NCBI GenBank assembly: GCA_963832165.1
Contig: CAWHTE010000004.1
Coordinates: 288,001 to 352,000, forward strand
Source of the DNA: an uncultured delta proteobacterium
Lineage (GTDB): Bacteria; Myxococcota_A; UBA9160; SMWR01
Length of the DNA stretch: 64,000 nucleotides
Reading direction: 5' to 3'
The notes under the pieces are model-generated. The model did no database searches. It had not been told where the DNA came from and saw only the letters and a program-made list of their open reading frames with translations. Positions 1,133 through 48,109 of the stretch are shown here, piece by piece (the stretch's first letter is position 1; every line of letters begins with the position of its first letter). The translations under genes and the position numbers were made by a program.

Positions 1133-2082
1133 CTTATGGCCTTCGCTCGCCTTCGGCTCGCTGCGCGAAACTTGCCGGCGCGACGCCTTCGCCGGCCGTA
1201 CTCGACGCGTACGCGCACTGCGCAGGGATCGCGCGGCGCAGCGGCTCGAGCTTCCTCGCGGCGTTCTGGATGTTCCCGCGCGCGGAGCGGCGCGCGCTGC
1301 ACGCGATCTACGCGTTCTGCCGGCTCGTCGACGACATCGCCGACGACCCCGCGCTGCGCGGCGACCGCGCGATGCTGCTCGAGCGCTGGCACGAAGAGCT
1401 CGTCGACGCCTACCGGGGCAAGGCGCGCCACCCGGTCGGAATCGCGCTGGGCGACGCGGTGCACCGCTTCCGTCTGCCCGAGGACTGCTTCCTCGATCTG
1501 CTCTCGGGCATCGAGGCCGACCTGCGCGGCGGCGAGATCGAGACGTTCGCGGAGCTCGAGCACTACTGCTACTGCGTCGCGTCGACGATCGGCCTGCTCG
1601 TGTGCGGCGTGCGCGGGCTGCGCGGCGCGCACGTGCGCGACTACGCGGTACACCTCGGCATCGCGGTCCAGCTCACCAACGTGCTGCGCGACGTGGGCGA
1701 GGACGCCGCGGGCGGGCGCGTCTATCTCGCGCGCGAGGATCGCGAGGCGTTCGGCGTCACGACGGAGTCGCTGCGCGCGGGCGTTCACAGCGAGCCGCTC
1801 GCGCGCCTGCTCTCGCTCTACGCCGCGCGTGCGCGCGAGCGCTACCGCCAGGCGCAGCGCGCGCTGCCCGCCGAGCTGCGCCGCCGGCTGCGCCCGGCGC
1901 AGGCGATGGGCGCGATCTACCGCGAGCTGCTCGAGGCGCTCGAGCGGCGCGACTTCCCGTACGACGGCCCCGCGCTGCGCCTCTCGAAGGCGCACCGTAT
2001 CGCGATCGCCGCGCGCGAGTGGGTCGGCATCGGAGCCCACACGAGCCGCGCGCAGCGAAGCGCACCCGAGCGAAGGCCATGA
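1129..2082 (+). CDS. hpnD: Presqualene diphosphate synthase HpnD (squalene/phytoene synthase family)
   Basis: SGSSF, YAFCRLVDDIADD, TNVLRDVGED, GRVYL motifs; ATG overlaps dxs stop (ATGA). Confidence 0.9.
   Translation: MTYGLRSPSARCAKLAGATPSPAVLDAYAHCAGIARRSGSSFLAAFWMFPRAERRALHAIYAFCRLVDDIADDPALRGDRAMLLERWHEELVDAYRGKARHPVGIALGDAVHRFRLPEDCFLDLLSGIEADLRGGEIETFAELEHYCYCVASTIGLLVCGVRGLRGAHVRDYAVHLGIAVQLTNVLRDVGEDAAGGRVYLAREDREAFGVTTESLRAGVHSEPLARLLSLYAARARERYRQAQRALPAELRRRLRPAQAMGAIYRELLEALERRDFPYDGPALRLSKAHRIAIAAREWVGIGAHTSRAQRSAPERRP
1133..1175 (-). repeat. 43-bp junction repeat, copy A
   Basis: Reverse complement GCAAGTTTCGCGCAGCGAGCCGAAGGCGAGCGAAGGCCATAAG matches 3144-3186 at 41/43 positions. 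Confidence 0.9.
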
Positions 2083-2083
2083 G
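2049..2083 (+). repeat. Junction repeat, degenerate copy D
   Basis: CGCGCAGCGA-N8-CGAGCGAAGGCCAT: same flanks and spacing as copy A, central 8 nt replaced; ends in the fni ATG. Confidence 0.65.
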
Positions 2084-3134
2084 CGAAGTCAGCGCGCGCA
2101 AGCAGGCACACCTCGATCTGTGCGCGCACGGCGACGTCGAGGCGCGCGGCACGACACTGCTCGAGGAGGTGCACCTGCTGCACCAGGCGCTGCCCGAGCT
2201 GTCGGCCGCCGACGTCGACCCGTCGATCTGGCTGTTCGGGCGGCGGCTCGCCGCGCCCGTGTACATCTCGGGCATGACCGGTGGCACAGAACGCGCCGGC
2301 GCGATCAACCGCGCGCTCGCGGCCGCGGCCCAGAAGGCCGGCTTCGGCTTCGGGCTCGGCTCGCAGCGCGCGATGTGGACCGACCCCGAGCTCGCCGCGA
2401 GCTATCGCGTGCGCGACGAAGCGCCCGACGTCGTGCTGCTCGGCAACGTCGGCGTCGTGCAGGCGCGCGGGTACGGGGCGGCCGCCGTGGCGGAGCTGGT
2501 CGAGGCGGTCGGCGCCGACGCGCTCTGCGTGCACCTGAATGCCGCCCAGGAGCTCGCGCAGGACGAGGGCGACCGCGATTTCCGCGGCGGCGTCGAGACG
2601 ATCGCCACGCTGGTCGAATCGCTGCACGTGCCCGTGATCGCGAAGGAGACCGGCTGCGGCCTGTCGCCCGCCGCGCTCGCACGGCTGCGCGAGGCGGGCG
2701 TCGAGTGGGTGGACGCGTCGGGCGCGGGCGGCACGACCTGGCCGGGCGTGGAGGCGCTGCGCGGATCGGCGCGCCAGCGCGCGCTCGGTTCGCTGCTGCG
2801 CGAGTGGGGCATTCCGACGGCCGCGAGCATCGCGTATGCGCACCGCGCAGGACTCTCGACGCTGGCCTCGGGCGGGATCCGGAGCGCACTCGACGTCGTG
2901 CGCGCGCTCGCGCTGGGGGCGCGCGCAGCGGGGATGGCGCTGCCGTTCCTGCGCGCGTACGAGCGCGGCGGGGCGAACGCGGTCGCGGCGCTGTGCGAAG
3001 AGCTCAGCGAGGGAGTGCGTGCGTTGCTGTTGCTCTCGGGCGCGTCTCGCCCGGAGCAGCTCGCGCTTGCGCCCCGCGCGCTCGGGCCGCGGCTTCGCGC
3101 CTGGCTCGATGTTGCCGATGGCGCGCAGGGCTGA
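2079..3134 (+). CDS. fni: Type 2 (FMN-dependent) isopentenyl-diphosphate delta-isomerase
   Basis: RKQAHLDLC, ISGMTGG, GLGSQR, HLNAAQELAQDEGD, KETGCG, GAGGTTW, WGIPTA, ASGGIR; ATG overlaps hpnD stop. Confidence 0.93.
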   Translation: MSEVSARKQAHLDLCAHGDVEARGTTLLEEVHLLHQALPELSAADVDPSIWLFGRRLAAPVYISGMTGGTERAGAINRALAAAAQKAGFGFGLGSQRAMWTDPELAASYRVRDEAPDVVLLGNVGVVQARGYGAAAVAELVEAVGADALCVHLNAAQELAQDEGDRDFRGGVETIATLVESLHVPVIAKETGCGLSPAALARLREAGVEWVDASGAGGTTWPGVEALRGSARQRALGSLLREWGIPTAASIAYAHRAGLSTLASGGIRSALDVVRALALGARAAGMALPFLRAYERGGANAVAALCEELSEGVRALLLLSGASRPEQLALAPRALGPRLRAWLDVADGAQG

Positions 3135-3135
3135 G

Positions 3136-3810
3136 ATGCTCGTGCAAGTTTCGCGCAGCGAGCCGAAGGCGAGCGGAGTCCATAAGGGGGGAGGCACGTC
3201 GACTGATCCGCCGGACCCTGTGCCCGCGCGCGGGCGCAAGGAGGAGACGCAGGAGCGGATCGTCGCCGCTGCGCTCGCGCTGTTCGCCACTCGCGGGTAC
3301 GAGGGCACGAGCATCTCCGCGATCGCGGCCCACGCGCGCGTCTCGCGCGCTGCCGTGTTCTGGCACTTCGGCGACAAGGAGGGTCTGTTCCGCGAGACCT
3401 TCCGGCGCATGCTCGTGCCGTTCTTCGCCGAGCTCCAGGCCAGCCTCGAGCACATCCCGCCGCGCGAGCGCGTGTTCGAGATCCTCTCCGCCTACGAGCG
3501 CGTGGTGGAGGAGAACGAGGAAGCGATCCGCTCGATCGTGCGCTGGCTGCTCGAGAGCGAGAAGCTGCGCGCGTCTTTGCGCGAGACGCTGTTCGCGCTC
3601 CACGACGCGCTCGTGAAGGACATCGGCGAGACGCTGGCGGCCGCGGGCGGCGGCACCGATGCGAGCGAGCAGCTCGGTGCTGCGCTCGTGGCGATGCTCG
3701 ACGGAAACCTCCTGCTCGCGCTGCTCGATCCGAATGCGCGCAACCGCGAGCTGCGGCGCGCCGGGCTCCGGCGCCTCGTGGAGCTCGCGATCGGAGCCGA
3801 CCGTGAGTGA
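3136..3810 (+). CDS. TetR/AcrR family transcriptional regulator
   Basis: HTH signature ERIVAAALALFATRGYEGTSISAIAAHARVSRAAVFWHFGDKEGL; start codon uncertain. Confidence 0.88.
   Translation: MLVQVSRSEPKASGVHKGGGTSTDPPDPVPARGRKEETQERIVAAALALFATRGYEGTSISAIAAHARVSRAAVFWHFGDKEGLFRETFRRMLVPFFAELQASLEHIPPRERVFEILSAYERVVEENEEAIRSIVRWLLESEKLRASLRETLFALHDALVKDIGETLAAAGGGTDASEQLGAALVAMLDGNLLLALLDPNARNRELRRAGLRRLVELAIGADRE
3144..3186 (+). repeat. 43-bp junction repeat, copy B
   Basis: GCAAGTTTCGCGCAGCGAGCCGAAGGCGAGCGGAGTCCATAAG, inverted relative to copy A. Confidence 0.9.
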
Positions 3811-4699
3811 GCGCGCGCTCGCGCTCGCAGGCGTGCCGGTTGGGAGCGATCGGCTCGCCGCGCGGGAGCTCTCGCCCGACGCGGTGCTGAGTCGGCTCCG
3901 CGGCGAGAACTTTCCCGTGGCGCTCCGCTGGCTGCCGCGCGCGCTGCGCGCCGACCTGATCGCGATCTACGGGGCGGCTCGTCTGATCGACGAGGCCGGC
4001 GACGCCGCGGGCGGCGATCGCAACGCGCTGCTCGACGAGGTCGAGAGGGACGTGCTTGCGGCGTTCGCGGGTGGGGCGCGTCATCCCCTGCTGCGCCGGC
4101 TCACGCCGCTCGCGGCCGCGCACGACCTCACTCCCGATCCGTTCCTGCGGCTGATCGCGGCGAACCGCTTCGATCAGCGGGCGCCCGACCTCGCGAGCTG
4201 GAGTGAGCTGTGCGACTACTGCCGACTCTCGGCAGAGCCGGTCGGTGAGCTCGTGCTGCGCATCTTCGACCAGGCGAGCGAGGAGAACCTGCGCGATTCG
4301 GGCGCCGTCTGCACCGCGCTGCAGGTGCTCGAGCACTGCCAGGACGTGGCCGAAGATGCGCGCGCAGGGCGCTGCTATCTGCCGCGCGACGACCGCGGGC
4401 GCTTCGGCTGCCGCGCGGAGGACCTGGTCGCGGAGCCCGCGCCCGAGCAGCTGCGGCGTTGCGTTGCGGTACAGGTCGAGCGCGCGCGCGATCTGCTCGC
4501 GTACGGCGATCTCCTGTGCGCGCGTCTGCGCGGATTCGCGCGCCCGGTCGTGGCCGCCTACGCCGCAGGAGGCTGGGCCACCGCCGCCGCGCTCGAGCGC
4601 GCGGAGTTCGATCCGAACCAGCGGCCGGTGCGGCCGCGCCGGATCGCCACGGTCAGCCACGCACTGCGAATCATGTGGGGGCGCGGAGGTCGCGCGTGA
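3803..4699 (+). CDS. hpnC: Hydroxysqualene synthase HpnC
   Basis: ENFPVA motif, IYGAARLIDEAGD, YCRLSAEPVGELVL, CTALQVLEHCQDVAED; GTG overlaps TetR end. Confidence 0.9.
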   Translation: MSERALALAGVPVGSDRLAARELSPDAVLSRLRGENFPVALRWLPRALRADLIAIYGAARLIDEAGDAAGGDRNALLDEVERDVLAAFAGGARHPLLRRLTPLAAAHDLTPDPFLRLIAANRFDQRAPDLASWSELCDYCRLSAEPVGELVLRIFDQASEENLRDSGAVCTALQVLEHCQDVAEDARAGRCYLPRDDRGRFGCRAEDLVAEPAPEQLRRCVAVQVERARDLLAYGDLLCARLRGFARPVVAAYAAGGWATAAALERAEFDPNQRPVRPRRIATVSHALRIMWGRGGRA

Positions 4700-6045
4700 G
4701 CACCGCACCGCACATCGCGGTGGTGGGCGGCGGGCTCGCGGGGATCACCGCAGCGCTCGCGTGCGCCGACGTGGGTGCGCGCGTGAGCCTGTTCGAGGCG
4801 CGCGCGTGCCTGGGTGGCGCAACGTACTCGATCGAGAAGCGCGGGCTCTCCATCGACAACGGCCAGCACGTGTTCATGCGCTGCTGCACGGCCTACCGCG
4901 GGCTGCTCGCACGCCTGAGCGTCGAGCGGCTCGCGCCGCTCCAGCCGCGCCTCGCGGTGCCGGTGGCGGCACCGGGGCGTCCGCTCGCGTGGATCCGGCG
5001 CCACCCGCTGCCCGCGCCGGCGCACCTCGCGCCGAGCCTGCTCGGCTTTCCCCACCTTCCGTTCGCGGCGCGGCTGCGCGCCGCGAACGTGGCGCGAACG
5101 TTCGCAGCGCTCGATCCCGACGATGCGCGCCTCGACGAGATCTCGCTCGGCTCCTGGCTCGGCGAGCGCGGCGTTCGTGACGAGGCATCGCTCGCGTTCT
5201 GGGATCTGCTGATCCGGCCCACGCTCAACGTGCGGGCTGCGGACGCGTCGCTCGCGCTCGTCGCGCGCGTGCTGCGCACGGGCTTCCTCGACCGCGCCGA
5301 CGCCGCGGACATCGGGCTGCCCGCAGTGCCGTTCTCCGTTCTGCACGACGGTCCCGCGCGGCGTGCGCTGCGCGCGAGGGGCGCCGCGGTGGAGCTGCGC
5401 GCCGCGGTGCGCGGGCTGGCTGCCGATACGCGGGGCGTGTCGCTGCAGGTCGGCGGGGAGTCGCTGCGCGCCGACGCCGTGATCCTCGCGGTGCCGCCCG
5501 ACGCGGCTGCGCGCCTCGCGCCCGCCGAGGCGGGGCTCGACGCGGTGGCGCTCGAGCGGCTCGGCGCATCGCCGATCGTGAACCTGCACGTGTGGTTCGA
5601 CCGGCCCGTGATGGACCGCCCGTTCGTGGCGGGCTGGGGCACGCCGCTTCAGTGGATCTTCGACCGCACGCGCGCGGCGGGCGCCGAACGCGGTCAGCTG
5701 CTCACGGTGTCGTTGTCGGCCGCGCGCGAGTGGATCGGGTGCAGCCGCGCCGAGCTGCGCGCGCACTTCCTGCCCGCGTTCTGCGCACTGTTTCCGGCCG
5801 CGCGCGACGCCGAGGTGCTCGACTTCTTCGCGCTCTCGGATCCCGCCGCGACCTTCCTCCAGGTGCCCGGCACGCGCCGGCTGCGGCCCGCCGTCGCGAC
5901 ACGACATACTTCGGTGTACCTCGCGGGCGCCTGGACCGACACGGGATGGCCGGCCACGATGGAAGGCGCGGTGCGCAGTGGCACCGCGGCCGCACATGCC
6001 GCGCTGCGCGCGCTCGCGCGCGTACCGCACGCGGAGGCTGCATGA
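4696..6045 (+). CDS. hpnE: Hydroxysqualene dehydroxylase HpnE (FAD-dependent)
   Basis: VVGGGLAG Rossmann motif, IDNGQHVFMRCC, LAGAWTDTGWPATMEGAVRSG. Confidence 0.93.
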   Translation: MSTAPHIAVVGGGLAGITAALACADVGARVSLFEARACLGGATYSIEKRGLSIDNGQHVFMRCCTAYRGLLARLSVERLAPLQPRLAVPVAAPGRPLAWIRRHPLPAPAHLAPSLLGFPHLPFAARLRAANVARTFAALDPDDARLDEISLGSWLGERGVRDEASLAFWDLLIRPTLNVRAADASLALVARVLRTGFLDRADAADIGLPAVPFSVLHDGPARRALRARGAAVELRAAVRGLAADTRGVSLQVGGESLRADAVILAVPPDAAARLAPAEAGLDAVALERLGASPIVNLHVWFDRPVMDRPFVAGWGTPLQWIFDRTRAAGAERGQLLTVSLSAAREWIGCSRAELRAHFLPAFCALFPAARDAEVLDFFALSDPAATFLQVPGTRRLRPAVATRHTSVYLAGAWTDTGWPATMEGAVRSGTAAAHAALRALARVPHAEAA

Positions 6046-7954
6046 GACGCGAACCCGAGACGGCGTGGGGCAGCGCGGCGCGCGGCGCCGGCGCACGCAG
6101 CGCCGCAAGCGAGGCGCTCGACCGCGCGGTCGCGCACCTGCTCGAGCTCCAGAACGCCGAGGGCTGGTGGAAGGGCGAGCTCGAGACGAACGTGACGATG
6201 GACGCCGAGGACCTGCTCATGCGCGAGTTCCTCGGGATCCGCACGCGCGAGGAGACGGCGCTCGCGGCGAACTGGATCCGCAGCAAGCAGCGCGAGGACG
6301 GGAGCTGGGCGACCTACTACGGCGGACCGGCCGATCTCTCGACGACGATCGAAGCCTACGCGGCGCTGCGGCTCGCGGGCGACCCGCCCGAGGCCGAGCA
6401 TATGAAGCGCGCGCGCGAGGTGGTTCTGGGCCTGGGCGGGATCGAGCACTCCCGCGTGTTCACGCGGATCTGGCTCGCGCTGTTCGGCGAATGGAGCTGG
6501 GACGACCTGCCCGCGCTGCCGCCCGAGGTGATGCTTCTGCCCTCGTGGTTCCCGCTCAACGTGTACGACTTCGCGTGCTGGGCGCGCCAGACGATCGTGC
6601 CGCTCACGATCGTGGGCTCGCACCGGCCCGTGCGTCCGCTGCCGTTCTCGCTCTCCGAGCTGCGCATGGGCGAGCGGCGCGAGACCGTCCACCCTCTTTC
6701 GACCTGGAAGGGCCGGCTGCAGCGCCTCGATCGCGCACTCCAGTGGTACGAGCGGCGCCCGATCCGGAAGCTGCGCGAGCTGTCCCGCCGGCTCGCGTGC
6801 GAGTGGATCCTCCAGAGGCAGGAAGCCGACGGCTCGTGGGGGGGATCCAGCCGCCCTGGGTGTACTCGGTGCTCGCGCTGCACCTCGAGGGCTATCCGCT
6901 CGACCATCCCGCGCTTGCGCGCGCGCTGCACGGCTTCCGGCGCTTCACGATCGAGCAGGGCGACGGTCGCCGGCTCGAGGCATGTCAGTCGCCGGTCTGG
7001 GACACCGCGCTCGCGATGATCGCGCTGCGCGACGCGGGCACACCGCCCGATCACCCGGCGCTGGTCCGGGCGGCGCAGTGGACGCTGCGCGAAGAAGTGC
7101 GCATCCCGGGTGACTGGTGCGTGCGGCGCCCGGCGCTCGAGCCCTCCGGATGGGCGTTCGAGTTCGACAACGACCGCTATCCCGACGTCGACGACACCGC
7201 CGAGGTGATCCTCGCGCTGCGAGCGGCGCGCTCGGGCGACGACGCCGCGCAGGACGCCTCGCTCGCGCGCGCGATCGCGTGGACCTGGGGCATGCAGTCC
7301 TCCGATGGAGGCTTCGCCGCGTTCGACGCCGACAACACGCGCGAACTCTGCCGCCAGCTCCCGTTCTGCGATTTCGGCGAGGTGATCGACCCGCCGTCGG
7401 CCGACGTCACTGCGCACGTCGTCGAGATGCTCGCACTCGAGGGGCACGCGGACCACGCGCGCGTGCAGAGTGCGGTCGACTGGCTGCTGCGCGCGCAGGA
7501 GCCGGGCGGGTCGTGGTTCGGGCGCTGGGGCGCGAACCACATCTACGGGACGGGCGCGGTCGTGCCCGCGCTGATCGCGGCGGGTCTGCCCGCTGATCAT
7601 CTCGCGATCCGGCGCGCCGTGCGCTGGCTCCATTCGGTGCAGAACGCCGACGGGGGATTCGGCGAGGACCTGCGTTCGTACACGCCGGAGGGCGCGCCCG
7701 GGCTCGGCGACTCGACCGCATCGCAGACCGCGTGGGCGCTGCTCGCGCTGCTCGCGGCCGGCGAGCGCGGGCGCTCGGTCGAACGAGCGGTGGAGTGGCT
7801 CTCGAGCACACAGCGCGCCGACGGCGACTGGGACGAGCCGCAGTTCACGGGCACCGGCTTCCCGGGCGACTTCTACATCCGCTATCACCTGTATCGGCTC
7901 GTATTCCCGATCCAGGCGCTAGGGCGCTATCTGTCCCTAGAGGTCGGTGAATGA
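6042..7954 (+). CDS. shc: Squalene-hopene cyclase, split by a one-base deletion at the G7 run 6838-6844
   Basis: QW repeats (QNAEGWW, QREDGSW, QEADGSW, QSSDGGF, QEPGGSW, QNADGGF, QRADGDW), catalytic DVDDTA, GTGFPGDFY; N-half in ORF 5592-7019, C-half in ORF 5978-7954. Confidence 0.93.
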
Positions 7955-8538
7955 CGAATGCGGCATCGCTCGTGGTGTTCGCGCCGCTCGCGGTCGAGGC
8001 GATCGCGCTGCGCGCGGGGGCGCGCGAGCTGCGGATCGAGCGCACGGGCATGGGGCCGCGCCGCGCGCGTGCGGCGGCGAAGCGCCACGATCCGACCTGC
8101 GCGAGCGCACTCGCGGTCGCGGGCGTGTGCGGCGCGCTCGATCCCGAGCTCGCACCCGGCAGCGTGTTCGTGCCCGCGGAGCTGCGCACCGGCGACGGTC
8201 GTACGTTCGCGGCCGATGCGGAGGGTCTTGCCGAGGCGCTTCTCGCGCGCGGCATTCCCGTGTACTCCGGCGTCCTGGTCGGCGCCGATCACATCCTGCG
8301 CGCCGAGGAGCGACCCGCGCTGCTCGCGAGCGGTGCGCGCTGCGTCGACATGGAGTCGCCGTGGCTCGCTGTCGCGGCGGCTGGGCGGCCGTTCGCGGTG
8401 CTGCGCGTGGTGTCGGATGGACCCGGCGCAGAGCTGTGGAGCCCGAACGTCCTGCGCAACGGCTGGCTCGCGCTCGCGGCGCTGCGCCGCGCCGCGCCCG
8501 CGCTCGTCGACTGGGCGCGCTCCAGAAATCTGAATTGA
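7951..8538 (+). CDS. hpnG: Hopanoid-associated phosphorylase/nucleosidase HpnG
   Basis: PNP/MTAN-like TGMGP, AGVCGALDPEL, VDMES, LRVVSD; position between shc and hpnH. Confidence 0.82.
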   Translation: MTNAASLVVFAPLAVEAIALRAGARELRIERTGMGPRRARAAAKRHDPTCASALAVAGVCGALDPELAPGSVFVPAELRTGDGRTFAADAEGLAEALLARGIPVYSGVLVGADHILRAEERPALLASGARCVDMESPWLAVAAAGRPFAVLRVVSDGPGAELWSPNVLRNGWLALAALRRAAPALVDWARSRNLN

Positions 8539-8547
8539 GGTGACGTG

Positions 8548-9870: not shown

Positions 9871-9951
9871 TCGCGAGCAGCCCGGAGATCGCTGCGGGCA
9901 AGCCGAGCGATGAAGAGCACGCCGATCGGCTCGGTGCGCAGCGCAAACGGG

Positions 9952-40652: not shown

Positions 40653-40708
40653 GGGCAGTCTCCGGTACCGTGGGCGCGTCGAGGGTGTGAACCCGGAGAG
40701 GGGAGTGA

Positions 40709-40724
40709 GCTGTAATCCTACAGC
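40709..40724. promoter_or_regulatory. Palindrome, candidate TetR operator
   Basis: GCTGTA-ATCC-TACAGC in divergent intergenic region upstream of TetR. Confidence 0.4.
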
Positions 40725-40770
40725 CCGCGGCATGATGCGTCGGATCGCCGCGCGAGTCCAGAGGGAAGGG

Positions 40771-40983
40771 ATGACGATCGAGATCGGGAAGCTGTGGGCG
40801 TGGTGCCGCAGGCATCCGGTCGCGTGCGCGGCGTTCGTGATCGGAACGGCCGCGGGATCGGTGTCGGCGGTGGCGTTCGAGATCGGACCCGAGGAGATGG
40901 CGACCTGGAAGCGCGCGCTCGGCGGCGCGGTTGCGGGTGCGTGGCTGGCGATGTTCCCGCTCGGCGCGCGGCTGTTCGACTGA
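40771..40983 (+). CDS. Small (70 aa) two-TM membrane protein, hypothetical
   Basis: Purine-rich RBS, two hydrophobic segments, stop overlaps SDR start (TGATG). Confidence 0.6.
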   Translation: MTIEIGKLWAWCRRHPVACAAFVIGTAAGSVSAVAFEIGPEEMATWKRALGGAVAGAWLAMFPLGARLFD

Positions 40984-41786
40984 TGGATCTCGGACTCGAC
41001 GAACGCGTCGCGCTCGTGACGGGCGCCTGGCGAGGCACCGGACGCGGCATCGCGACCGTGCTCGCCGAGGAGGGCGCTCGCGTGTGGCTGCACGGCTTCG
41101 ATCTCGCGCTGGCCGAGCGCGAGGCGGCCGCGCTGCGCGCGGAGGGCTGCGACGTGCGCGCGGTGGCGGGCGACATCCGAAGCGATGCGGGCGCGGCGCA
41201 GGTGTGCGAGGAGCTGCTGCGCGACGGCGGTCGCGTCGACGTGCTCGTGAACAACTACGGAATCGCCGAGGGGCCGGGCTGGTTCGATGGCACTACCGAC
41301 GATTGGATCGAGAGCTACCAGAACAACGTGCTCGGGGGCGTGCGGCTCGTGCGCGGTCTCGTCCCGGGCATGCGCGAGCGCGGCTTCGGGCGCGTGATCT
41401 TCGTGGGCACGGTCGGATCGCTGCGGCCCGGCTCGCGCACACCGCACTATTACGCCGCGAAGGCGGCGCTGCCCAATCTCACGGTCGGGCTCGCGAAGGA
41501 GCTCGCCGGCAGCGGGATCACCGTGAACACGGTGAGCCCGGGCATCATCGCCACCGACGAGGTGCGCGAGAGCTTCCGGCGCCGGGCTGCAAAGCGGGGA
41601 TGGAGCGGCGACGACGTCGAGCTCGAGCAGCGCGCGGTTGCGGAGTTCATGCCGAATCCGAGCGCGCGCGCGGGGCGAGTCGAGGAGGTGGGTGCGCTCG
41701 TGGCGTTCCTGGCGAGCCGCCATGCGGGATACATCAACGGAGCGAATCTGCGCATCGACGGCGGGGCTGCTGACGCGGGGGTTTGA
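40983..41786 (+). CDS. SDR family oxidoreductase
   Basis: VTGAWRGTG, VLVNN, YYAAK, VNTVSPG, NLRIDGG. Confidence 0.9.
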   Translation: MDLGLDERVALVTGAWRGTGRGIATVLAEEGARVWLHGFDLALAEREAAALRAEGCDVRAVAGDIRSDAGAAQVCEELLRDGGRVDVLVNNYGIAEGPGWFDGTTDDWIESYQNNVLGGVRLVRGLVPGMRERGFGRVIFVGTVGSLRPGSRTPHYYAAKAALPNLTVGLAKELAGSGITVNTVSPGIIATDEVRESFRRRAAKRGWSGDDVELEQRAVAEFMPNPSARAGRVEEVGALVAFLASRHAGYINGANLRIDGGAADAGV

Positions 41787-41804
41787 AGTTGTCACCCAGG
41801 CCAC

Positions 41805-42037
41805 CCGGTGTCCGTTGCCTGGGCCGGGCGGATGTTTGTCGCTCCGGCCCGGGCTTCGGCAGTGAACGTCAGCCGCGCAGGGTTCGAGCCGGTGACCGAC
41901 GGGTCGTTCGCACCCCCCGCTTGCCTGCGCCCGTGCCTGCGCGACTAAATCATCCGCCCGGCCTAGGTCAGTGAGAGGCTCACGCTTCCAGAGCGTAAGG
42001 GTGGCTTGCTGCGGCAAGCCAACCGCCCCGGCCGCAC
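41805..42037. repeat. Structured intergenic element 2
   Basis: 41805-41830 identical to 50541-50566; terminal stem GGCCGGGCGGATG...CATCCGCCCGGCC; homologous to 18925-19100. Confidence 0.8.
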
Positions 42038-42052
42038 TTCATTGAGAGCCGC

Positions 42053-42634
42053 CTACGCGGCACCTCGCGCATCCCAGCCGCGGCGCAGCGCGCGGAGGAT
42101 GGACGGGTAGACGATCCAGTGCCGGAACGGGTCGATCGCCATCATGTACGCGCGCGTGATCGCGCCGACCGGACGCACGTAGATCGCCCAGTAGAAGCGG
42201 TAGCCGCCGGGCCGCGGCACGAGCGCCTGTACAGACCACGCCGCGACGGTCGCGTTCTCGATCTCCGACACGGCCTCGCGCGCGAACACGTAGACGACGC
42301 GGAACGGGCCGTCGCGCGTGCCGGGCGCCACCTCGGACGCGGCGCGATCCGCGTCGCCGAGCGCGGGCAGCAGGCTGTGAGGCGAAGCGCTCGGCGCGAC
42401 GGGCCGCTCGCGATCCCAGCCCAGCACGCGCCCGATCGCGAGCCGCAGCGCGAACAGCGCGCGCGTCGCGCGGTTCGCGGCCCCGAGGTCGACCAATGCG
42501 CGCACGTCGGCGATCCGACGGTCGGTGCCGCCGCCGGGCAGATCGAGCGCCCACACGTCGTGCAGCGGCACGTCCGCGAGCAGCGCGTGCGCGCGGAGAT
42601 CGAGCCGCCGGTACTCGGCGGGGTCGATCCGCAC
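42053..42634 (-). CDS. DUF2867-like protein
   Basis: LADVPLHDVW, LFALRLAIG, EIENATV, YMMAIDPFRHWIVYP. Confidence 0.6.
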   Translation of the reverse strand: MRIDPAEYRRLDLRAHALLADVPLHDVWALDLPGGGTDRRIADVRALVDLGAANRATRALFALRLAIGRVLGWDRERPVAPSASPHSLLPALGDADRAASEVAPGTRDGPFRVVYVFAREAVSEIENATVAAWSVQALVPRPGGYRFYWAIYVRPVGAITRAYMMAIDPFRHWIVYPSILRALRRGWDARGAA

Positions 42635-42643
42635 GCGGGCGCG

Positions 42644-45031
42644 CTACTTCGCCGGCTCGGGCGGCACTTCGAGTGCGCCGTCCGCGATCAGCCGATCGAT
42701 CGTCGCGTCGTCGAGTCGCAGCAGGTTTCGACAGATCTCGCGCGTGTGCTGGCCGTGGCGCGGCGCCTGCTTGATCACGAGGTCCTGCGTGCCCGTGGCG
42801 CGGAATGCCGGGCCCTCGAACGCCATCTTTCCGACGACCTGCTGGTCGATCCAGCGCACGTAGCCGCGCGCGAGGAAGTGCGGATCCTCGAGCTGATCGC
42901 TGCCCGTGAACACGGGACCACACGGGACGCCGTGGCCCTGCAGGAGCGCGGCGATCTCGTTCTTGTTGCGCTCGCGCGTCCACGCGCCGAGCTGCGCGTC
43001 GATCGCGTCGTGCGCGGCGCGGCGTCCGTCCACGTGCGCGAGCGCGGGGTCGGCCGCCCAGGCCGGGCTGCCGAGCGCGGTCACGAGGTTGCGCCAGTCG
43101 GCGTCGTCGCGGATCGAGATCACGCACCACTGCTGCTCGCCCGCGCACGGATACGCGCCAAAGGGCGCGCCGCGTTCGCTGCGATTGCCGCGCGGCTTCA
43201 CCGACCCGGGCTCGAGCCCCGCCTTCCAGAGCAGGTCGCCGAGGATCCCCGTCACCACCTCGACCTGCGCCACCTCGCCGTGCGCGCCCTCCTGCGTCTC
43301 TTCGCGCGAGTGGAGCAGCGCGAGCGCGTTGATCGCGGCGAGCCGGCCCGCGAGATGGTCGGGGAAGATCGACGTCGAGCCGGCCGGGGCTTCCTGATCG
43401 GAATAGCTCCAGAGATGGGAGAGGCCGCCGACCGGCTGCGTGCTCGGCCCGTAGCCGATCCAGTCGCTCCAGGCGCCGCGCGACCCGAGCAGCTGGCTGC
43501 TCACCATCACGCAGTAGGGATTCCATTTCTTGATCGTCTCCCAGCCGATCCCCATTCCCTGCATCGCGCCGGTCTTGCTGTTCTCGATCATCACGTCGCA
43601 CGCCTCGATCAGGCGCTTCACGATCGCGAAGCCCTCGGGCTTCTTGATGTTCACGCCGAAGCTGCGCTTGGAGCGCGACGACGACGCGTACGACGGCGAC
43701 AGCTCGGTGCTGAGCACGACGCGGATGAAGTCGGGGTAGGTCTGCGACTCGATCTTGATCACGTCGGCGCCGTACTCGGCAAACAGACGCCCGGCTTCCA
43801 CGCCGACGCCGCCGATCCCGAAGTCGAGCACGCGCAGGCCCGACAGCGGCAGCGACGGGTCGGGGCGCAGGTCGCTGGGTTGGGACTTCGGCATCACGCG
43901 CGTCTCGAGCACCTCGTCGGTGTGCTCTCCGAGCTGCGGCGCGCGGCGGCGCGGGCCCTGCCGCACACCGTCGATCTCGAAGAAGCCCGCCGCCATCGGT
44001 CCGGACACGCCCGGCACGACCTCCATGTCGACGAACGTCTTGCGCGAGAGCAGGTGCTCGTTCGCGAGCACTTCCTCGGGGCGCAGCACGGGCGTACACA
44101 CGATGCCGCGCCGCTGCGCTTCGGCGGAAACCTCCTCCATCGTCATCGTGCTGAAGTGCTCGGTGTAGAGCGGCATCAGGACGTCGGCGTTCTGGAGCCG
44201 CGCGATGAACGACTCGAAGAACGGGTCGGCGAACGCCTCGGGCTTGCCGAGCCATTCCCACATCGCGCGCCACTGGCGCGGCGAGAGCACCACCAGGCGC
44301 ACGTAGCCGCCCTTGCACGCGTAGATCGTGTAGAGCGGGCCCGAGCCCATGCGCACCTCGGTCGGGCGGATCCCCTGGCCGACCGAAACCGCGGCACTCG
44401 ACATCGACCAGTCGGTGGTCTGTGCGACCGCTTCGAGCACGGAGAAGTCGATGATCTGTCCGTAGCCCGAGCGCCGCTGCTCGCGCAGCGTCGCGAGCGT
44501 GGCGAACGTGGCCATGATTCCCGCGATGTCATACGCCATCGGAGAGGGCGCGATCAGCGGCGGCTTCGACGCGATGCCGGCCTTCCAGACCATGCCGCTC
44601 ATCGCTTCGAGCACGGCGTCGGTGCCGACCCAGTCGCGGTAGGGCCCGGTCTGTCCGAAATCGCTGATGCGCAGGATCAAGAGCTTCGGGTAGCGCTCGA
44701 TCAGATCCGCGAAATCGAAGCCGAGCGACTCGAGGTAGCCCGGCCCGAACGACTCGATCCAGACGTCGGCGCAGCGCAGCTGCGCGTGCAGCGCCTCGAC
44801 TCCGTACTCCGCCGTGAGATCGAGCGTGATCCCGCGCTTGCCCGCGTTTCGGAATGCGTAGTAGAGGCTCTCGCCCGCGTGGAACGGCGGTAGTCGCCGC
44901 GAGCGCGCTCCCTCGGGCGGCTCGACGCGGATCACGTCGGCGCCCAGGTCGGCGAGCAGGCGGCCGCACAGCTCGCCCTTCTCGTCGGCGAAATCGAGTA
45001 CGCGCAGGCCTCTGAGGGGTTGATCGGTCAT
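42644..45031 (-). CDS. Double-domain CaiB/BaiF CoA transferase
   Basis: Two copies of PLxGLRVLDF...GADVIxxE and APxxGxHT. Confidence 0.9.
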   Translation of the reverse strand: MTDQPLRGLRVLDFADEKGELCGRLLADLGADVIRVEPPEGARSRRLPPFHAGESLYYAFRNAGKRGITLDLTAEYGVEALHAQLRCADVWIESFGPGYLESLGFDFADLIERYPKLLILRISDFGQTGPYRDWVGTDAVLEAMSGMVWKAGIASKPPLIAPSPMAYDIAGIMATFATLATLREQRRSGYGQIIDFSVLEAVAQTTDWSMSSAAVSVGQGIRPTEVRMGSGPLYTIYACKGGYVRLVVLSPRQWRAMWEWLGKPEAFADPFFESFIARLQNADVLMPLYTEHFSTMTMEEVSAEAQRRGIVCTPVLRPEEVLANEHLLSRKTFVDMEVVPGVSGPMAAGFFEIDGVRQGPRRRAPQLGEHTDEVLETRVMPKSQPSDLRPDPSLPLSGLRVLDFGIGGVGVEAGRLFAEYGADVIKIESQTYPDFIRVVLSTELSPSYASSSRSKRSFGVNIKKPEGFAIVKRLIEACDVMIENSKTGAMQGMGIGWETIKKWNPYCVMVSSQLLGSRGAWSDWIGYGPSTQPVGGLSHLWSYSDQEAPAGSTSIFPDHLAGRLAAINALALLHSREETQEGAHGEVAQVEVVTGILGDLLWKAGLEPGSVKPRGNRSERGAPFGAYPCAGEQQWCVISIRDDADWRNLVTALGSPAWAADPALAHVDGRRAAHDAIDAQLGAWTRERNKNEIAALLQGHGVPCGPVFTGSDQLEDPHFLARGYVRWIDQQVVGKMAFEGPAFRATGTQDLVIKQAPRHGQHTREICRNLLRLDDATIDRLIADGALEVPPEPAK

Positions 45032-45089
45032 GGCTTTCCTCGCGCGAATGCGGGTCGGCGCAGTGTACGCCGATGGGGGTCGCGGCCGC

Positions 45090-45956
45090 TCACATGGGCG
45101 GCCGGTAGCGGATCATGCCTTCCTGCGCGCACGACGCCACGAGCCGCTCGTCGCGTGTGTAGAACGCGCCGCGCGCGAAGCCGCGCGCTCGGTCGGTGAT
45201 CGGGCTGTCCTGGTCGAAGTAGAGCCACTCGTCGGCGCGGAACGGACGGTGGAACCACATCGCGTGGTCGAGGCTCGCCGACCGGAAGCCCGGGGCGGCC
45301 ATCCCGATCGGGTGTGGCAGCACCGCGGAGACGAGCAGCGTGAAGTCCGACGCATAGGCGAGCAGCGCCTGGTGCAGGCTCACCTCATCGGGCAGCGCGC
45401 CCTTCGCGCGCATCCAGGTGCGCGTGCGCGGCGGGCGCGCAGTGCGGTCGAACAGGTGGAGCCCGCCGACCGAGCGCAGCTCGATCGGAAGGTCGAAGCG
45501 GCGGTCGTCGCGCTGGATCGCGGGCGCGTGGCGCTCGAGCTCGGCGCGGATCTCGTCTTCGTAAGGCAAGCCTTCCGGCTCACCCGGCAGCTCGATCGGA
45601 ATCTGGTGCGACAGGCCCTCCTCGGCCACACAGAACGATGCCTCGAAGTGGAAGATCGCCTCGCCGTGCTGGATCGCGATCACGCGCCGCGTCGAGTAGC
45701 TCTGTCCGTCGCGGATCCGATCGACCTGATACACGATCGGCACGGTCGGATCGCCCGGGCGCAGGAAGTAGCTGTGGAACGAGTGGGCGCTGCGACCCTC
45801 GACGGTGCGATAGGCCGCGATCAGCGCCTGCGCCATCACCTGGCCGCCGAAGATGCGATCGCGCCCGTTCTTCGGGCTCGTGCCGCGGAACCAGTTGCGC
45901 TCGAGCGTCTCGATGTCGAGCAGCTCGAGCAGCTGTTCCAGTTGTTGGCCGATCAC
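45090..45956 (-). CDS. tesB: Acyl-CoA thioesterase II
   Basis: IFGGQVMAQAL, HSYFLRPGD, LAYASD, ASLDHAMWFHRP, SCAQEG. Confidence 0.93.
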   Translation of the reverse strand: MIGQQLEQLLELLDIETLERNWFRGTSPKNGRDRIFGGQVMAQALIAAYRTVEGRSAHSFHSYFLRPGDPTVPIVYQVDRIRDGQSYSTRRVIAIQHGEAIFHFEASFCVAEEGLSHQIPIELPGEPEGLPYEDEIRAELERHAPAIQRDDRRFDLPIELRSVGGLHLFDRTARPPRTRTWMRAKGALPDEVSLHQALLAYASDFTLLVSAVLPHPIGMAAPGFRSASLDHAMWFHRPFRADEWLYFDQDSPITDRARGFARGAFYTRDERLVASCAQEGMIRYRPPM

Positions 45957-46000
45957 GGGGGGTTCCTCGCAGGGGGGCGCGGCCCGTACACTAGCCGTTG

Positions 46001-47251
46001 ATGGCGATTCACATCGACGACCTCGGCAGACCGCGGCTGCCGCTCGCGCTCCGCGCGCTGAATGCGCTCGGCGGCCCGATCGCGCGTCGGGTCGTGTCCC
46101 TCGATCTGGACGCTCTGCTCGCGACGGCGCGCCAGCGCACGGGGCTAGCCGACTACGGCGACGCGAGCTTTCGCGAGCCGCTGGCCGTGCTGCTCGAGGC
46201 GTTCGAGCGCGACGCCGAGCTCTCCGCGCTGGGCCGGATCGCCTCGCGCGGTCTCGTGCTGCAGCTGCTCGCGAACCGGCTGCGCATCGAGGATCTGTTC
46301 CGGCGCCATCCCGAGATCGAGCGGGAGCGGATCGAGCGGCCGATCATCATCGCGGGGCTCCCGCGCACAGGCACCACGCATCTGCACAACCTGCTCTCGC
46401 AGGACCCCTCGCTGCGCTCGCTGCCGTACTGGGAGAGCCTCGAGCCGGTGCCCGACCCGCGTGAGCCCGAGGTGGGCGGCCGCGATCCGCGCGTCGCGCG
46501 CTGCGAGAAGGCGCTCGCGACCGTGCACCGCGTGATGCCGCTGTTCCCGCTCATGCACGAGATGACTGCCGACGCGCGGCACGAGGAGATCCAGCTGCTC
46601 GCGATCGAGTTCTCGACGATGCTGTTCGAGTCGAGCTACTTCGTGCCGAGCTATGCGGCGTGGTACAAGAAGAGCGATCAGCGGCCCGCCTACCGCTATC
46701 TGCGCCGCTGTCTCCAGGCGCTCCAATGGCTGCGTGGGCCGAAGCGCTGGGTACTCAAGAGCCCCCAGCACCTCGAGCAGCAGCGCGCGCTGATCGAGAT
46801 CTTCCCCGACGCGACGTTCGTCCAGACGCACCGCGACCCGCTCCGGATCACCGCGTCGCTGTGCACGATGATCGCGTATGGCAACCGCATGAACGCGCGG
46901 CGCGTCGATCCGGTGGCGGTCGGGCGCTACTGGGCTGCGCGCACCGAGGATCTGCTGCGCGGCTCGATCGAGGGGCGCGCGGCTCTGCCTCCCGCGCAGG
47001 TGATCGACGTGCATTTCAAGCAGTTCATGAAGGATGACGTCGCGACCGCGGAGCGCGTGCTCGAGTTCGCGGGGCAACCCGCGAGCGATGGCGCGCGCGC
47101 GGCGATCCGCGCGTTCATGGATGCGAACCCGCGCGGCAAGCACGGCACGATCGACTACCGGCTCGAGGACGTCGGGCTCGATGCGGCCGAGCGCCGCGCC
47201 GCGCTGCGCTTCTACTCCGAGCACTTCGGCGTCGAAGAGGAGCGCGCGTGA
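46001..47251 (+). CDS. Sulfotransferase family protein
   Basis: PAPS-binding GLPRTGTT, RWVLKSPQH, THRDP. Confidence 0.9.
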   Translation: MAIHIDDLGRPRLPLALRALNALGGPIARRVVSLDLDALLATARQRTGLADYGDASFREPLAVLLEAFERDAELSALGRIASRGLVLQLLANRLRIEDLFRRHPEIERERIERPIIIAGLPRTGTTHLHNLLSQDPSLRSLPYWESLEPVPDPREPEVGGRDPRVARCEKALATVHRVMPLFPLMHEMTADARHEEIQLLAIEFSTMLFESSYFVPSYAAWYKKSDQRPAYRYLRRCLQALQWLRGPKRWVLKSPQHLEQQRALIEIFPDATFVQTHRDPLRITASLCTMIAYGNRMNARRVDPVAVGRYWAARTEDLLRGSIEGRAALPPAQVIDVHFKQFMKDDVATAERVLEFAGQPASDGARAAIRAFMDANPRGKHGTIDYRLEDVGLDAAERRAALRFYSEHFGVEEERA

Positions 47252-48063
47252 ACGGGCGTCTCGACGGCCGCGTCGCGCTCGTGACCGGCGGCGGCGGCGG
47301 GATCGGCCGCGCGGTGGCCGAGCGGCTCGCGCGCGAGGGCGCGCTGGTCGAGATCGCCGAGATCGACGCGGCGCGCGGTGACGACACGGCTGCGGCGATC
47401 GCACAGCAGGGCGGCGAGGCACACGCGGAGCGCATCGACGTGTGCGAGTCCGGCGAGGTCGGGCGTTGGATCGAGGGAGTGCTCGCGCGCCGCGCGCGCA
47501 TCGACGTGGTCGTGAACAACGTCGGGCACTATCTGCGCTCGCAGCCGTTCGCGGAGTCGGGTCCGGATCACTGGGCCGCGCTGCACCGGATCAACCTCGA
47601 GCACGTGTTCCACGTCACGCGCGCGGCGCTGCCGGCGCTGCGCGTCCACCGCGCGGGCTCGATCGTGAACGTGGCCTCGGTCGAGGGGCTGCGCGGCTAT
47701 CCGCCCGATCCGGTCTACGGAGCCTACAAGGCCGCGGTCGTGCACTTCAGCCGGTGTCTCGCTCTCGAGCTCGCGCCCGAGGTGCGCGTGAACGCGATCG
47801 CACCCGACCTCACGCAGTCGCTCCAGGTGGACTACGAGCGCTGGGTGCCCGCGGCCGAGCGCCACAAGTGGAGCTTGTGGGCGCCGCTGGGCCGGCCCGG
47901 CACCGGCGCCGATCAGGCCGACGTGGTGGCGTTCCTGGCCTCCGACGACGCGCGCTTCGTGACGGGGCAGGTGATCGCCACCGACGGCGGCTCGCTCGCG
48001 GCGGGCGGCTGGTTCCGCTCCGCGCGCGCAGGCCGCTGGGTGAACCGGCCGTTCGATCCGTGA
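47248..48063 (+). CDS. SDR family oxidoreductase
   Basis: VTGGGGGIG, NNVG, YGAYK, VNAIAPD. Confidence 0.9.
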   Translation: MNGRLDGRVALVTGGGGGIGRAVAERLAREGALVEIAEIDAARGDDTAAAIAQQGGEAHAERIDVCESGEVGRWIEGVLARRARIDVVVNNVGHYLRSQPFAESGPDHWAALHRINLEHVFHVTRAALPALRVHRAGSIVNVASVEGLRGYPPDPVYGAYKAAVVHFSRCLALELAPEVRVNAIAPDLTQSLQVDYERWVPAAERHKWSLWAPLGRPGTGADQADVVAFLASDDARFVTGQVIATDGGSLAAGGWFRSARAGRWVNRPFDP

Positions 48064-48065
48064 CT

Positions 48066-48109
48066 GCAAGTTTCGCGCAGCGAGCCGAAAGGCGAGCGAA
48101 GTCCATGAG
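48066..48109 (+). repeat. Junction repeat, copy C (44 bp)
   Basis: GCAAGTTTCGCGCAGCGAGCCGAAAGGCGAGCGAAGTCCATGAG; contains ATG of next gene. Confidence 0.9.

Follow-up and report, generated by a model that had tools for sequence, protein, structure and literature searches.

A 42-nt non-palindromic repeat, probably spread between and within genes and predicted to be translated in frame, in an uncultured Myxococcota genome

The window analysed here, a 64,000-nucleotide stretch of one contig from an uncultured delta proteobacterium, carries five copies (A–E) of a short repeat, each of them at a gene boundary. The copies and the genes that they touch are as follows:

1129..2082, plus strand: squalene/phytoene synthase family (HpnD-like) gene (PF00494, E=4.7e-70, residues 36–287)
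1134..1175, minus strand: copy A, an exact 42-nt unit, antisense to the genes and in frame after hpnD codon 2
2045..2086, plus strand: copy D, a degenerate unit (nhmmer E=0.085) in the last codons of the HpnD-like gene
3144..3193, plus strand: copy B, a unit followed by the G-rich tail CCATAAGGGGGGAG
3220..3810, plus strand: TetR-family regulator (PF00440; alignment with the congeners G005 and G001)
48066..48115, plus strand: copy C, a unit with an extra A, filling the spacer from an SDR stop codon (48061–48063) to the next gene
48105..49010, plus strand: 3-hydroxyisobutyrate-dehydrogenase-like gene (PF03446, PF14833)
52173..52227, minus strand: copy E, a degenerate unit of the hairpin subtype, GCAAG-hairpin-CGCGCCACGAG-GGCGAAGCC-GAGCGCAG

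Copies A and B were matched by pattern at 1133–1175 (minus strand) and 3144–3186 (plus strand) with 0 mismatches, as compared to 0 matches in 100 shuffled sequences, and copy C (48066–48109) has one extra A (GCCGAAAGGC). These are the three near-identical copies reported in an earlier note on this DNA, and the nhmmer E-values (9e-15, 1e-14 and 3e-13 for A, B and C, respectively) confirm them. The two copies described as degenerate are weak when taken alone, but both keep the architecture of the family; copy E was assigned by architecture only, because its nhmmer match (52180–52211, minus strand) has an E-value of 5.3. The compensatory swap to GGC-GAA-GCC in the mini-hairpin of copy E, also pointed out before, corresponds to the hairpin subtype with this core; 31 of 161 genome copies have the same core. 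The peptides quoted for the copies are correct translations as reading frames.

Copy A had been proposed to encode an N-terminal peptide of HpnD, and the data agree with this. The segment in the SQS_PSY (HpnD-like) gene reads YGLRSPSARCAKL; no alternative in-frame ATG, GTG or TTG occurs before 1270, which already lies inside the conserved domain. The dxs/hpnD ATGA overlap is kept in two genomes of the same genus (G004 and G005), from which the 42 nt of copy A are absent. The same gene carries copy D at its C-terminus, as had been claimed, directly before the ATGA overlap with a type-2 IDI-like gene; at this position the present genome (G000) is ~35 nt longer than G005, in which the CATGA junction is kept. 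Copy B had been read as the N-terminus of the TetR regulator, but is probably untranslated. It lies inside an 85-nt spacer between the fni-like stop (3132–3134) and GTG 3220; the GTG-CCC at 3220 also occurs in the orthologue from G005, and 14 residues after this GTG the TetR_N domain starts, so that the TetR start is probably located downstream of copy B. For copy C, a peptide is unlikely as the NAD_binding_2 domain starts at ATG 48105 (profile position 2 aligns two residues past it), but this ATG is indeed contained in the element tail, CCATGAG. True starts past the element, a possibility raised earlier, are thus probable for copies B and C and not for copy A. The end of copy E abuts the ATG (52172–52170) of a minus-strand gene.

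Among sequencing runs, the best share of the sampled words of the stretch was 0.16 and none reached half. In runs X1, X2, X3 and X20, one of which is a metatranscriptome library, contigs piled up on two repeat copies (depth 35–1324, compared to ~0–38 beside them). The pile-up ends at 1136/1137 and 1175 agree with the repeat unit; one X1 contig skips 3143–3217, and metagenome contigs jump back 40 nt at the repeat. The pile-up contigs belong to other organisms and are uninformative on transcription or absence.

The 43-mer of the window is part of a genome-wide repeat family. A census by blastn-short and nhmmer over the genome (5.5 Mb; the assembly has an estimated completeness of 89%) yielded 191 nhmmer matches below an E-value of 0.01, and 137 of these were also below 1e-5; 185 copies were used for the analysis of placement. 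The repeat unit is 42 nt, equivalent to 14 codons, and occurs singly or in head-to-tail arrays. The basic unit is not palindromic, and its termini (GCAAG... and ...CCATCA) have no inverted-repeat relation. Unit positions 9–35 form a 27-nt core, CGCGCAGCGAG-G[C/G]C-GNA-G[G/C]C-GAGCGAAG, with an identity of 97–100% (148 copies). The only conserved hairpin is a 3-bp mini-hairpin with a GNA loop within this core; its stem pair covaries (C-G in 123, G-C in 31 and other combinations in 7 of 161 copies), and the GNA loop is found in 151/161 copies. About one third of the copies have an additional hairpin, which follows GCAAG, precedes the core and has 5–7 bp and a GNA triloop; its stems covary as in tagged REPs.

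RNA folding of five basic units gave z-scores of +1.0, +1.3, +0.95, −0.59 and +0.74 relative to shuffled sequences, that is, no structure beyond the controls, and an Rfam cmscan of window positions 1000–3400 at E≤1 returned only a chance lncRNA match (E=0.52). The tail (CCAT...GTGG) was examined for a further hairpin, which was rejected: its minimum free energy did not exceed the level of shuffles, and the pairing was no better than with permuted partners. A larger parent element was rejected as well, since an all-against-all BLAST of the 2-kb flanks gave only paralogous genes of 66–77% identity. Neither terminal inverted repeats nor a target duplication were found at the two exact insertions (in hpnD and a TsaC-like gene). 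The copies do not qualify as MITEs, being without terminal inverted repeats, target-site duplication or a high-identity parent IS around them. A mobilising enzyme was found neither among the Y1 genes nor in the search for a parent element. An invariant core that is not linked to a transposase points to a separate copying activity.

The distribution of the copies over the genome is far from random. With gene calls and frames from a crude codon model of the analysis itself, in which start codons are especially uncertain, 119 of the 185 copies (64%) lie ≤60 nt from a predicted gene boundary, whereas 15.5% of random positions do; the random placement that had been named as a refutation of the junction preference was not seen. 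The claim that every copy sits at a gene boundary holds for the window but not for the genome, where 20 copies lie deep within genes, in frame. At least one of the 'internal' cases (rbfA-truB) is junction read-through. The copies crowd into short spacers between genes of the same direction. Thirty-five units begin 0–32 nt past a stop codon, and 34 copies are entered, at its C-terminus, by the reading frame of the upstream gene; of the 89 elements preceded by a sense gene, 54 are entered by the frame of that gene. Within 25 nt of the element end, the limit of the scan, a candidate start in the coding frame of the next gene is present in 55 of 87 contexts. Several junction copies have the stop one base after the start, an overlap of the ATGA/GTGA type just behind the element. 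Supply of a Shine-Dalgarno sequence by the tail was tried as an explanation and rejected; of the 55 element-associated starts, 25 have the motif, compared to 38% of all predicted genes, which is no enrichment.

The orientation is strongly biased, with 119 sense and 26 antisense copies (p=2e-15; sense contexts ++ 60,.+ 36 and +. 23; antisense contexts -- 11, -. 8 and.- 7). Upstream of start codons, 36 copies are sense and 8 antisense, and of the copies inside predicted genes 59/63 are sense. In other species, the orientation upstream of starts is again mainly sense (16 versus 5), and downstream of stops sense and antisense are similarly frequent (12 versus 19). A replication-strand bias was rejected, since the element direction tracks gene direction on both strands; at lagging-strand positions there are still 47 sense versus 14 antisense copies.

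The 54 copies predicted to be translated are distributed very unequally over the reading frames (22 ASF, 30 QVS and 2 KFR; p=3e-7 versus equal use). The two hydrophilic sense frames (ASFAQRAEGER and QVSRSEPKASE) thus take 52 of the 54, and the basic frame KFRAASRRRAK is used by 0/20 internal and 2/34 C-terminal copies. The in-frame copies of other species are sense in 5/5 cases and use the same two frames. In the frame census, antisense translation of the copy A type is rare, and the earlier statement that new termini arise in several frames and orientations does not hold. Where a copy is in frame, the predicted product is a hydrophilic peptide of 14 residues. Host genes include radA, atpG, purH, mfd and birA, all single-copy and intact. 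The insert in RadA is a gap relative to 5LKM, that in AtpG falls in a variable loop relative to 5DN6, and the predicted host-element junction in RadA reads ...LQLAAGAASFAQR. Presumably, the inserted peptide is tolerated in loops of the host proteins.

Comparison with orthologues, suggested as a check for empty sites, showed such sites at several genes. The hpnD site is empty by exactly 42 nt in G004 and G005, and the site in the TsaC-like gene by exactly 42 nt in 3/3 same-genus genomes. Within the same genus, the sites in radA (insert of 45 nt; 4/4 genomes), atpG (2/2), purH (2/2) and mfd (1/1) are also empty, and the element is absent from the spacer upstream of radA in 1/1 genome. One site is common to G000 and G004, and there both copies are decayed, including the core. 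Unit numbers vary: an orthologous junction has one unit in G000 and 4.5 units in the relative L024, read as QVSRSEPKASEDQR repeats, with four exact core matches at 42-nt spacing in L024; further arrays are found in G004. A 23-mer of the core is present in 26 of 41 relatives; in the phylum as a whole, 31 of 301 genomes have it, and these belong almost entirely to one class, in which core copy numbers run from 0 to more than 200. The core is near-invariant across two orders and identical in many species, and the distribution among congeners is patchy (1 to 139 core matches each), with a single core match in one 95%-complete congener. As judged from these comparisons, the copies are recent, lineage-specific insertions. 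The earlier proposal of a small mobile element that creates new termini at junctions is therefore borne out by the lineage-specific insertions and the frequent reading of upstream genes into the element, and the phenomenon is wider than was stated.

The explanation that we favour, and consider likely, is that of an interspersed, non-palindromic 42-base repeat of ~190 copies, which has recently inserted between and within genes, probably spreads by an activity acting in trans, and is predicted to be translated in frame. A unit that is 3n long, stop-free in five of the six frames and hydrophilic in two sense frames would restrict the survival of coding insertions to those frames, mostly in the sense orientation; the bias in orientation and frame would then stem from a selective filter and not from the insertion mechanism. 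At junctions, the tails CCATGAG or CCATAAG together with a G-rich run would supply both a stop and a start, and in some cases a run resembling a Shine-Dalgarno sequence; we propose that translational coupling is kept in this way. As to the putative copying activity, its recognition site is likely the invariant core together with the GNA mini-hairpin; alternatively, the near-invariance of the core across two orders could reflect selection for a host function.

The latter possibility can be taken further, by assuming that the repeat is a cis-acting RNA or DNA signal of the host, maintained by selection, which spread because it serves operon expression, the intragenic copies being by-products. 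Such a signal might act in intercistronic processing, stability or translational coupling, or might be bound by a conserved protein. The near-invariance of the 27-nt core in the genome and its identity in many species of two orders would fit, as would the mainly sense orientation upstream of starts, here and in other species, and spacers in which the element often takes up exactly the distance between stop and start. Congeners, however, do without the element at the equivalent junctions and genes, and the 95%-complete congener has one core match; the sole shared copy has a decayed core, the folding is no better than that of shuffles and Rfam gives no match, 20 copies lie inside unrelated genes, and the Shine-Dalgarno motif is not enriched. 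We therefore regard a host signal as rather unlikely. Another reading would be a domesticated 'operon punctuation and peptide cassette', in which a module of 14 residues, in phase with the codons and built on an invariant 27-nt core, would be recognised by a factor conserved across the class. Copying would be linked to transcription and sense-specific, possibly via an RNA intermediate. If true, stop/start junctions would have been re-written and flexible loops added to housekeeping proteins throughout a class of uncultured Myxococcota; we hold this to be an unlikely, speculative possibility.

That the repeat is of the REP/REPIN type and is moved by a RAYT-like transposase of the Y1 (HUH) family, with hairpins in single-stranded DNA as its substrate, is in our view very unlikely. 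The genome has 12 PF01797 (Y1_Tnp) genes, a target duplication is absent as predicted for HUH enzymes, and the GNA-triloop hairpins of about one third of the copies, with their covarying stems, are like those of tagged REPs. But 11 of the 12 Y1 genes have no repeat copy within 4 kb and possess their own, different inverted ends, so that the expectation of a RAYT/TnpA(REP) gene flanked by the repeat was not confirmed. The Y1 family was found in just 8 of 41 relatives: nine genomes with 23–139 core matches have no Y1 match with this query, and G015 has seven Y1 matches and no repeat. Moreover, the basic unit is no palindrome, and its orientation follows transcription and not the replication strand. 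Finally, the intragenic copies may go untranslated, being removed or bypassed at the level of the RNA or the ribosome, with the host proteins unchanged. The sense orientation of nearly all intragenic copies is what an RNA-level signal would need, and essential single-copy genes do carry copies. Length and frame should then be irrelevant, yet the inserts that were measured are 3n (45 nt in radA, and 42 nt both in hpnD and in the TsaC-like gene) and the KFRAASRRRAK frame is avoided; a ribozyme or intron-like structure was not detected in the Rfam scan or by folding. This explanation is highly improbable.

An interspersed repeat as favoured here means that the colonisation of coding sequences by repeats is not confined to Rickettsia: in this soil lineage, which is free-living and high in G+C, a module of 14 codons has recently made its way into the single-copy housekeeping genes radA, atpG, purH and mfd and into dozens of gene termini. 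The insertions amount to a natural experiment that tells which loops and termini of proteins accept a defined peptide, and the presence or absence and the unit number of the element could serve as a strain-typing marker for an uncultured clade. It is also a warning for annotation, because starts, C-termini and apparent gene fusions beside the units are easily miscalled.

Several known types of repeat can be compared with the present family. BOX elements of Streptococcus pneumoniae are modular, with one module tandemly repeated, and are intergenic and structured; they differ in modules, size and host. REP/REPIN sequences are imperfect palindromes of 20–40 nt that form a stable stem-loop, are extragenic and are accompanied by a RAYT gene flanked by the repeats. 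The basic unit described here has no stable stem-loop, a hairpin being present in the minority subtype only, and 20/185 copies lie in frame in genes and 34/185 are entered at C-termini. For the GTAG/CGTC REPs, the text of Di Nocera et al. (2013; PMC3733652) describes short repeats near or overlapping coding regions, some of which give stop codons and some of which lie inside replication or repair genes, with one super-family that lacks a dedicated transposase. By this description, the hairpin subtype resembles a tagged REP (tag GCAAG, stem of 5–7 bp and triloop), but its tag differs from both GTAG and CGTC, no stem-loop occupies this position in the majority subtype, the conserved part is the largely single-stranded 27-nt core, and neither a sense bias nor tandem 42-nt arrays are features of REPs.

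The closest parallels are with MIRU and RPE. According to Supply et al. (1997), as cited in PMC3184786, MIRU are units of 40–100 bp in 40–50 copies, co-transcribed in the spacers of polycistronic operons, with frames that overlap the ends of adjacent genes, filled and empty sites that differ between species, head-to-tail arrays of variable unit number, tetranucleotide direct repeats and G+C-rich internal inverted repeats. The present family shares the size range, the intercistronic location along transcription, the overlap of unit frames with the flanking stop or start (the junction copies, and the ATG of copy C), the filled and empty sites between species and the arrays of variable unit number. 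Its sequence is presumably different, and it further differs in phylum and copy number (~190), in having no tetranucleotide direct repeats at the exact hpnD and TsaC-like insertions, and in its many in-frame insertions in housekeeping genes and its GNA mini-hairpin core. The Rickettsia palindromic elements are ~100–150 bp and palindromic, with families RPE-1 to RPE-10, and are inserted in frame in many unrelated functional genes, where they encode a conserved peptide (Ogata et al. 2000, as cited in PMC10969869). In-frame insertion in functional genes (radA, atpG, purH and mfd) with a conserved predicted peptide is common to both; the unit of 42 nt is non-palindromic (a contrast by size and form), forms tandem arrays and is mostly intercistronic. 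The comparison with Rickettsia made in the earlier note thus fits the behaviour but not the anatomy, because the unit is not palindromic. A full-text literature search gave no description of the repeat or of such elements in Myxococcota. Overall, the family unites features of MIRU and RPE; elements of this kind are known from Rickettsia and mycobacteria, and the present family appears to be undescribed.

The repeat picked out in the earlier note as a 43-mer proved to be real and to represent one unit of an interspersed family of 42 nt (14 codons). Its IUPAC pattern matched the window with 0 mismatches at 1133-1175 (minus strand) and 3144-3186 (plus strand), and gave 0 matches in 100 shuffles; the third copy, at 48066-48109, has one A inserted relative to the 43-mer. 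Two degenerate copies scored low with nhmmer and kept the architecture of the family.

Copies of the repeat in the window.
Copy A, 1133-1175, minus strand: exact pattern match; predicted antisense translated copy in the HpnD-like gene.
Copy B, 3144-3186, plus strand: exact pattern match; probably untranslated, upstream of the TetR start.
Copy C, 48066-48109, plus strand: one extra A; spacer copy with ATG 48105 in its tail.
Copy D, 2045-2086, plus strand: degenerate (nhmmer E=0.085); HpnD C-terminus.
Copy E, 52173-52227, minus strand: degenerate (nhmmer E=5.3); G-C stem subfamily.

The peptides quoted for these copies are correct translations of their reading frames; as protein termini, they hold for copies A and D and are probably wrong for B and C, where starts at 3220 and 48105 fit the domains. 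The hpnD site is empty in the closest relative (G004): the source genome has exactly 42 nt extra, after codon 2. Since the dxs/hpnD ATGA overlap is kept in G004 and in a second relative (G005), and the next in-frame start lies only at 1270, within the SQS_PSY domain, copy A is predicted to be translated. It would be among the rare antisense translated copies, as 18 of the 24 opposite-strand genes facing the element end before it. Copy D is additional sequence at the HpnD C-terminus compared with G005; the CATGA junction is already present there, so, contrary to the earlier note, the fni start was not created by copy D. The frame across copy B is open from ATG 3136, which places the TetR_N start at residue 42; from GTG 3220 it is at residue 14. 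This position, and the GTG-CCC at 3220 shared with G005, indicate that copy B is probably untranslated. Copy C fills a spacer, and NAD_binding_2 starts two residues after ATG 48105; a 15-residue extension from GTG 48060 across the copy is possible though unnecessary. Copy E lies in sense orientation, its end abutting the ATG of a minus-strand gene. The spacer around it is divergent, and a phosphotransferase-like ORF on the plus strand probably starts near 52290 (MPHPEKRDL...).

The window occupies C4:288001-352000 of the source genome (5.54 Mb, 70% G+C, 11 contigs). This genome yielded 141 matches at E<1e-3 by blastn-short with the copy-B region, and 191 at E<0.01 (137 at E<1e-5) with an nhmmer profile of 65 copies. 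The core (positions 9-35) is 97-100% identical in 148 ungapped copies and reads CGCGCAGCGAG-G[C/G]C-GNA-G[G/C]C-GAGCGAAG; outside the core, conservation drops to 50-80%, in the 5' GCAAGTTT as in the tail at the 3' end (NCCATCAGGYGGGMG). The middle of the core is a 3-bp stem with a GNA loop in 151/161 copies. Its second pair covaries (C-G 123, G-C 31, other 7; n=161), and the "compensatory swap" reported for copy E corresponds to the G-C subfamily. The core is preceded by GCAAGTTTC in 108/185 copies, by an alternative sequence folding at -6 kcal/mol or better in 67, and by neither in 10. Among these 67, many form clean stems of 5-7 bp capped by a GAA, GCA, GTA or GGA triloop, and the sequence of the stem varies between copies; some of the 67 are surely chance folds of G+C-rich DNA. 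The basic unit folded no better than shuffles (z = +1.0, +1.3, +0.95, -0.59 and +0.74 for five units), is not palindromic, and had no match in Rfam. A supposed second hairpin, in the tail, failed its controls.

Gene calling relied on codon log-odds scores learned from long ORFs (4,841 genes, 87% of the genome; starts are crude). The 191 copies were intergenic (87), overlapped a gene end (41) or were internal (63, of which 59 lie in the direction of the gene). Copy centres fell 60 nt or less from a predicted gene boundary in 119/185 cases, against 15.5% of 20,000 random positions, and in coding sequence in 38%, against 87%. Independently of gene calls, the best of six frames was scored over 150 nt on each side of a copy, giving the contexts ++ 60,.+ 36, +. 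23, .. 23, -+ 11, -- 11, -. 8,.- 7 and +- 6 relative to the element. Where orientation was unambiguous, 119 copies were sense and 26 antisense (p=2e-15). This bias tracks transcription, not replication: it was 72 to 12 on the G-rich strand and 47 to 14 on the other, and only 56% of all genes are co-oriented with GC skew.

Translation was deduced from reading frames in those contexts, 89 in all, where a sense coding frame lies to the left of the element. A stop preceded the unit by 3-35 nt in 35; in 34 the frame entered the unit and stopped within or past it, often one base past the next gene's candidate start (ATGA-type overlap); and in the other 20 the frame carried on beyond the unit with a good coding score. 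The two hydrophilic frames, ASFAQRAEGER (22) and QVSRSEPKASE (30), were used far more than the basic KFRAASRRRAK (2; p=3e-7 against equal use). Four hosts, RadA, AtpG, PurH and Mfd, were examined in detail; their genes and birA are each single copy in the assembly. The RadA insert is a gap relative to 5LKM, after the Walker A helix (whole-protein match E=4e-109). AtpG has ~30 additional residues relative to 5DN6, in a variable loop; from a one-stretch alignment to 6fkf_g, this appears to be the loop holding the extra segment of chloroplast gamma. The atpG insert (L120:1395-1535, C7:395895-396035 in the source genome) is a ~100-nt composite that folds well (z=-3.4), and 93% identical sequence occurs at two further places in G004. 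At C3:410528-411895, rbfA-like and truB-like frames are joined without a stop via a partial unit, VSRSEPKASS, which may reflect a fusion mediated by the element, or else truB may start in that same frame.

Empty sites were found for several copies in relatives of the same genus: a TsaC-like gene (C3:161952) has exactly 42 nt extra against three congeners and radA has 45 nt extra, and the sites are empty for atpG (2/2 with an orthologous segment), purH (2/2), mfd (1/1) and the spacer upstream of radA (1/1). Together with frames entering units, these bear out the main idea of the earlier note, a small mobile element at junctions that adds protein termini. One site filled in both the source genome and G004 (C3:161382) carries copies that have diverged, core included, which argues against strong selection on an individual copy. 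The exact insertions (hpnD, TsaC-like gene) showed neither a target duplication nor terminal inverted repeats, and no larger parent element was found around copies. Head-to-tail arrays also occur in G004. A locus of another species, L024 (190-400), has four exact core matches at 42-nt spacing (4.5 units), read by the upstream gene as QVSRSEPKASEDQR repeats, and the orthologous junction in the source genome (C11:751603) has 1 unit, a VNTR-like difference. At C8:7733, one unit lies between direct repeats of a tRNA 3' half (GGTTCGACTCCAGTCCCGGGCACCA on each side).

A search for the 23-mer core (≤1 mismatch; reversed control 0 in all genomes) found it in 26/41 relatives and in 31/301 genomes of an even sample of the phylum. 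Matches in congeners ranged from 1 (G001, 95% complete) to 139 (G004), and G014 had 216. Within the class, families f1 (6/9), f7 (6/6), f12 (7/9), f11 (1/1) and f13 (7/10) have it and f10 (0/18) does not; outside it were f33 (2/18) and one single-mismatch match. The exact 26-mer core occurs at at least 111 loci in metagenome-assembled genomes, with titles mostly Myxococcota/Deltaproteobacteria and a few others. At window 1068-1235 and 3084-3251, around two of the copies, contigs accumulate from three metagenomes of soil and from a metatranscriptome library of rhizosphere (over the four runs, depth is 35-1324 there and roughly 0-38 alongside); the family is thus abundant in soil data sets, though contigs of other organisms are no evidence of transcription.

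The sense bias could arise at insertion or by selection afterwards. Among 104 copies in other genomes scorable by the codon model, 48 were sense and 26 antisense, and the five in-frame copies were all sense, in the same two frames. The sense excess was seen upstream of starts (16 to 5) and was absent downstream of stops (12 to 19), a pattern that fits selection on copies overlapping translation signals and does not fit a sense-specific mode of insertion. As to a mobiliser, the earlier note had advised looking for a RAYT, a Y1 (HUH) transposase linked to REPs. PF01797 (Y1_Tnp) gave 12 matches in the source genome, genes of ~230 aa that are pairwise 53-86% identical.

Y1 transposase genes outside the window (seven more complete the set).
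C3:43921-44604
C11:62776-63459
C11:917885-918553
C11:229610-230293
C6:7437-8107

No repeat copy lies within 4 kb of 11 of the 12, and all 12 genes have their own inverted ends (TTTGAGGGAAGG / CCCTCAAAGCC) and, upstream, A+T-rich sequence resembling a promoter. Searched for with a single paralogue, the Y1 family was patchy (8/41 relatives); nine genomes with 23-139 core matches (G003, G004, G005, G009, G016, G025, G029, G034, G037) had none, and G015 had 7 with the repeat absent. A RAYT as mobiliser is therefore unsupported. The Y1 genes resemble the TIR-flanked tyrosine transposases (TIRYT) named in PMC3733652.

Full-text searching of the literature found no description of this family. REPs are at times intragenic and able to provide stop codons, and their CGTC super-family is without transposase (PMC3733652); going by the features named in that account, they share no defining anatomy with the present repeat. 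Rickettsia palindromic elements (RPE) form in-frame insertions in many Rickettsia genes (PMC10969869), and the likeness is in behaviour inside genes, again without defining anatomy in common as far as that text describes it. MIRUs, with units of 40-100 bp and 40-50 copies, lie in polycistronic spacers, with frames overlapping adjacent genes and empty sites in related species (PMC3184786); as portrayed there, they behave at junctions much as the present family does.
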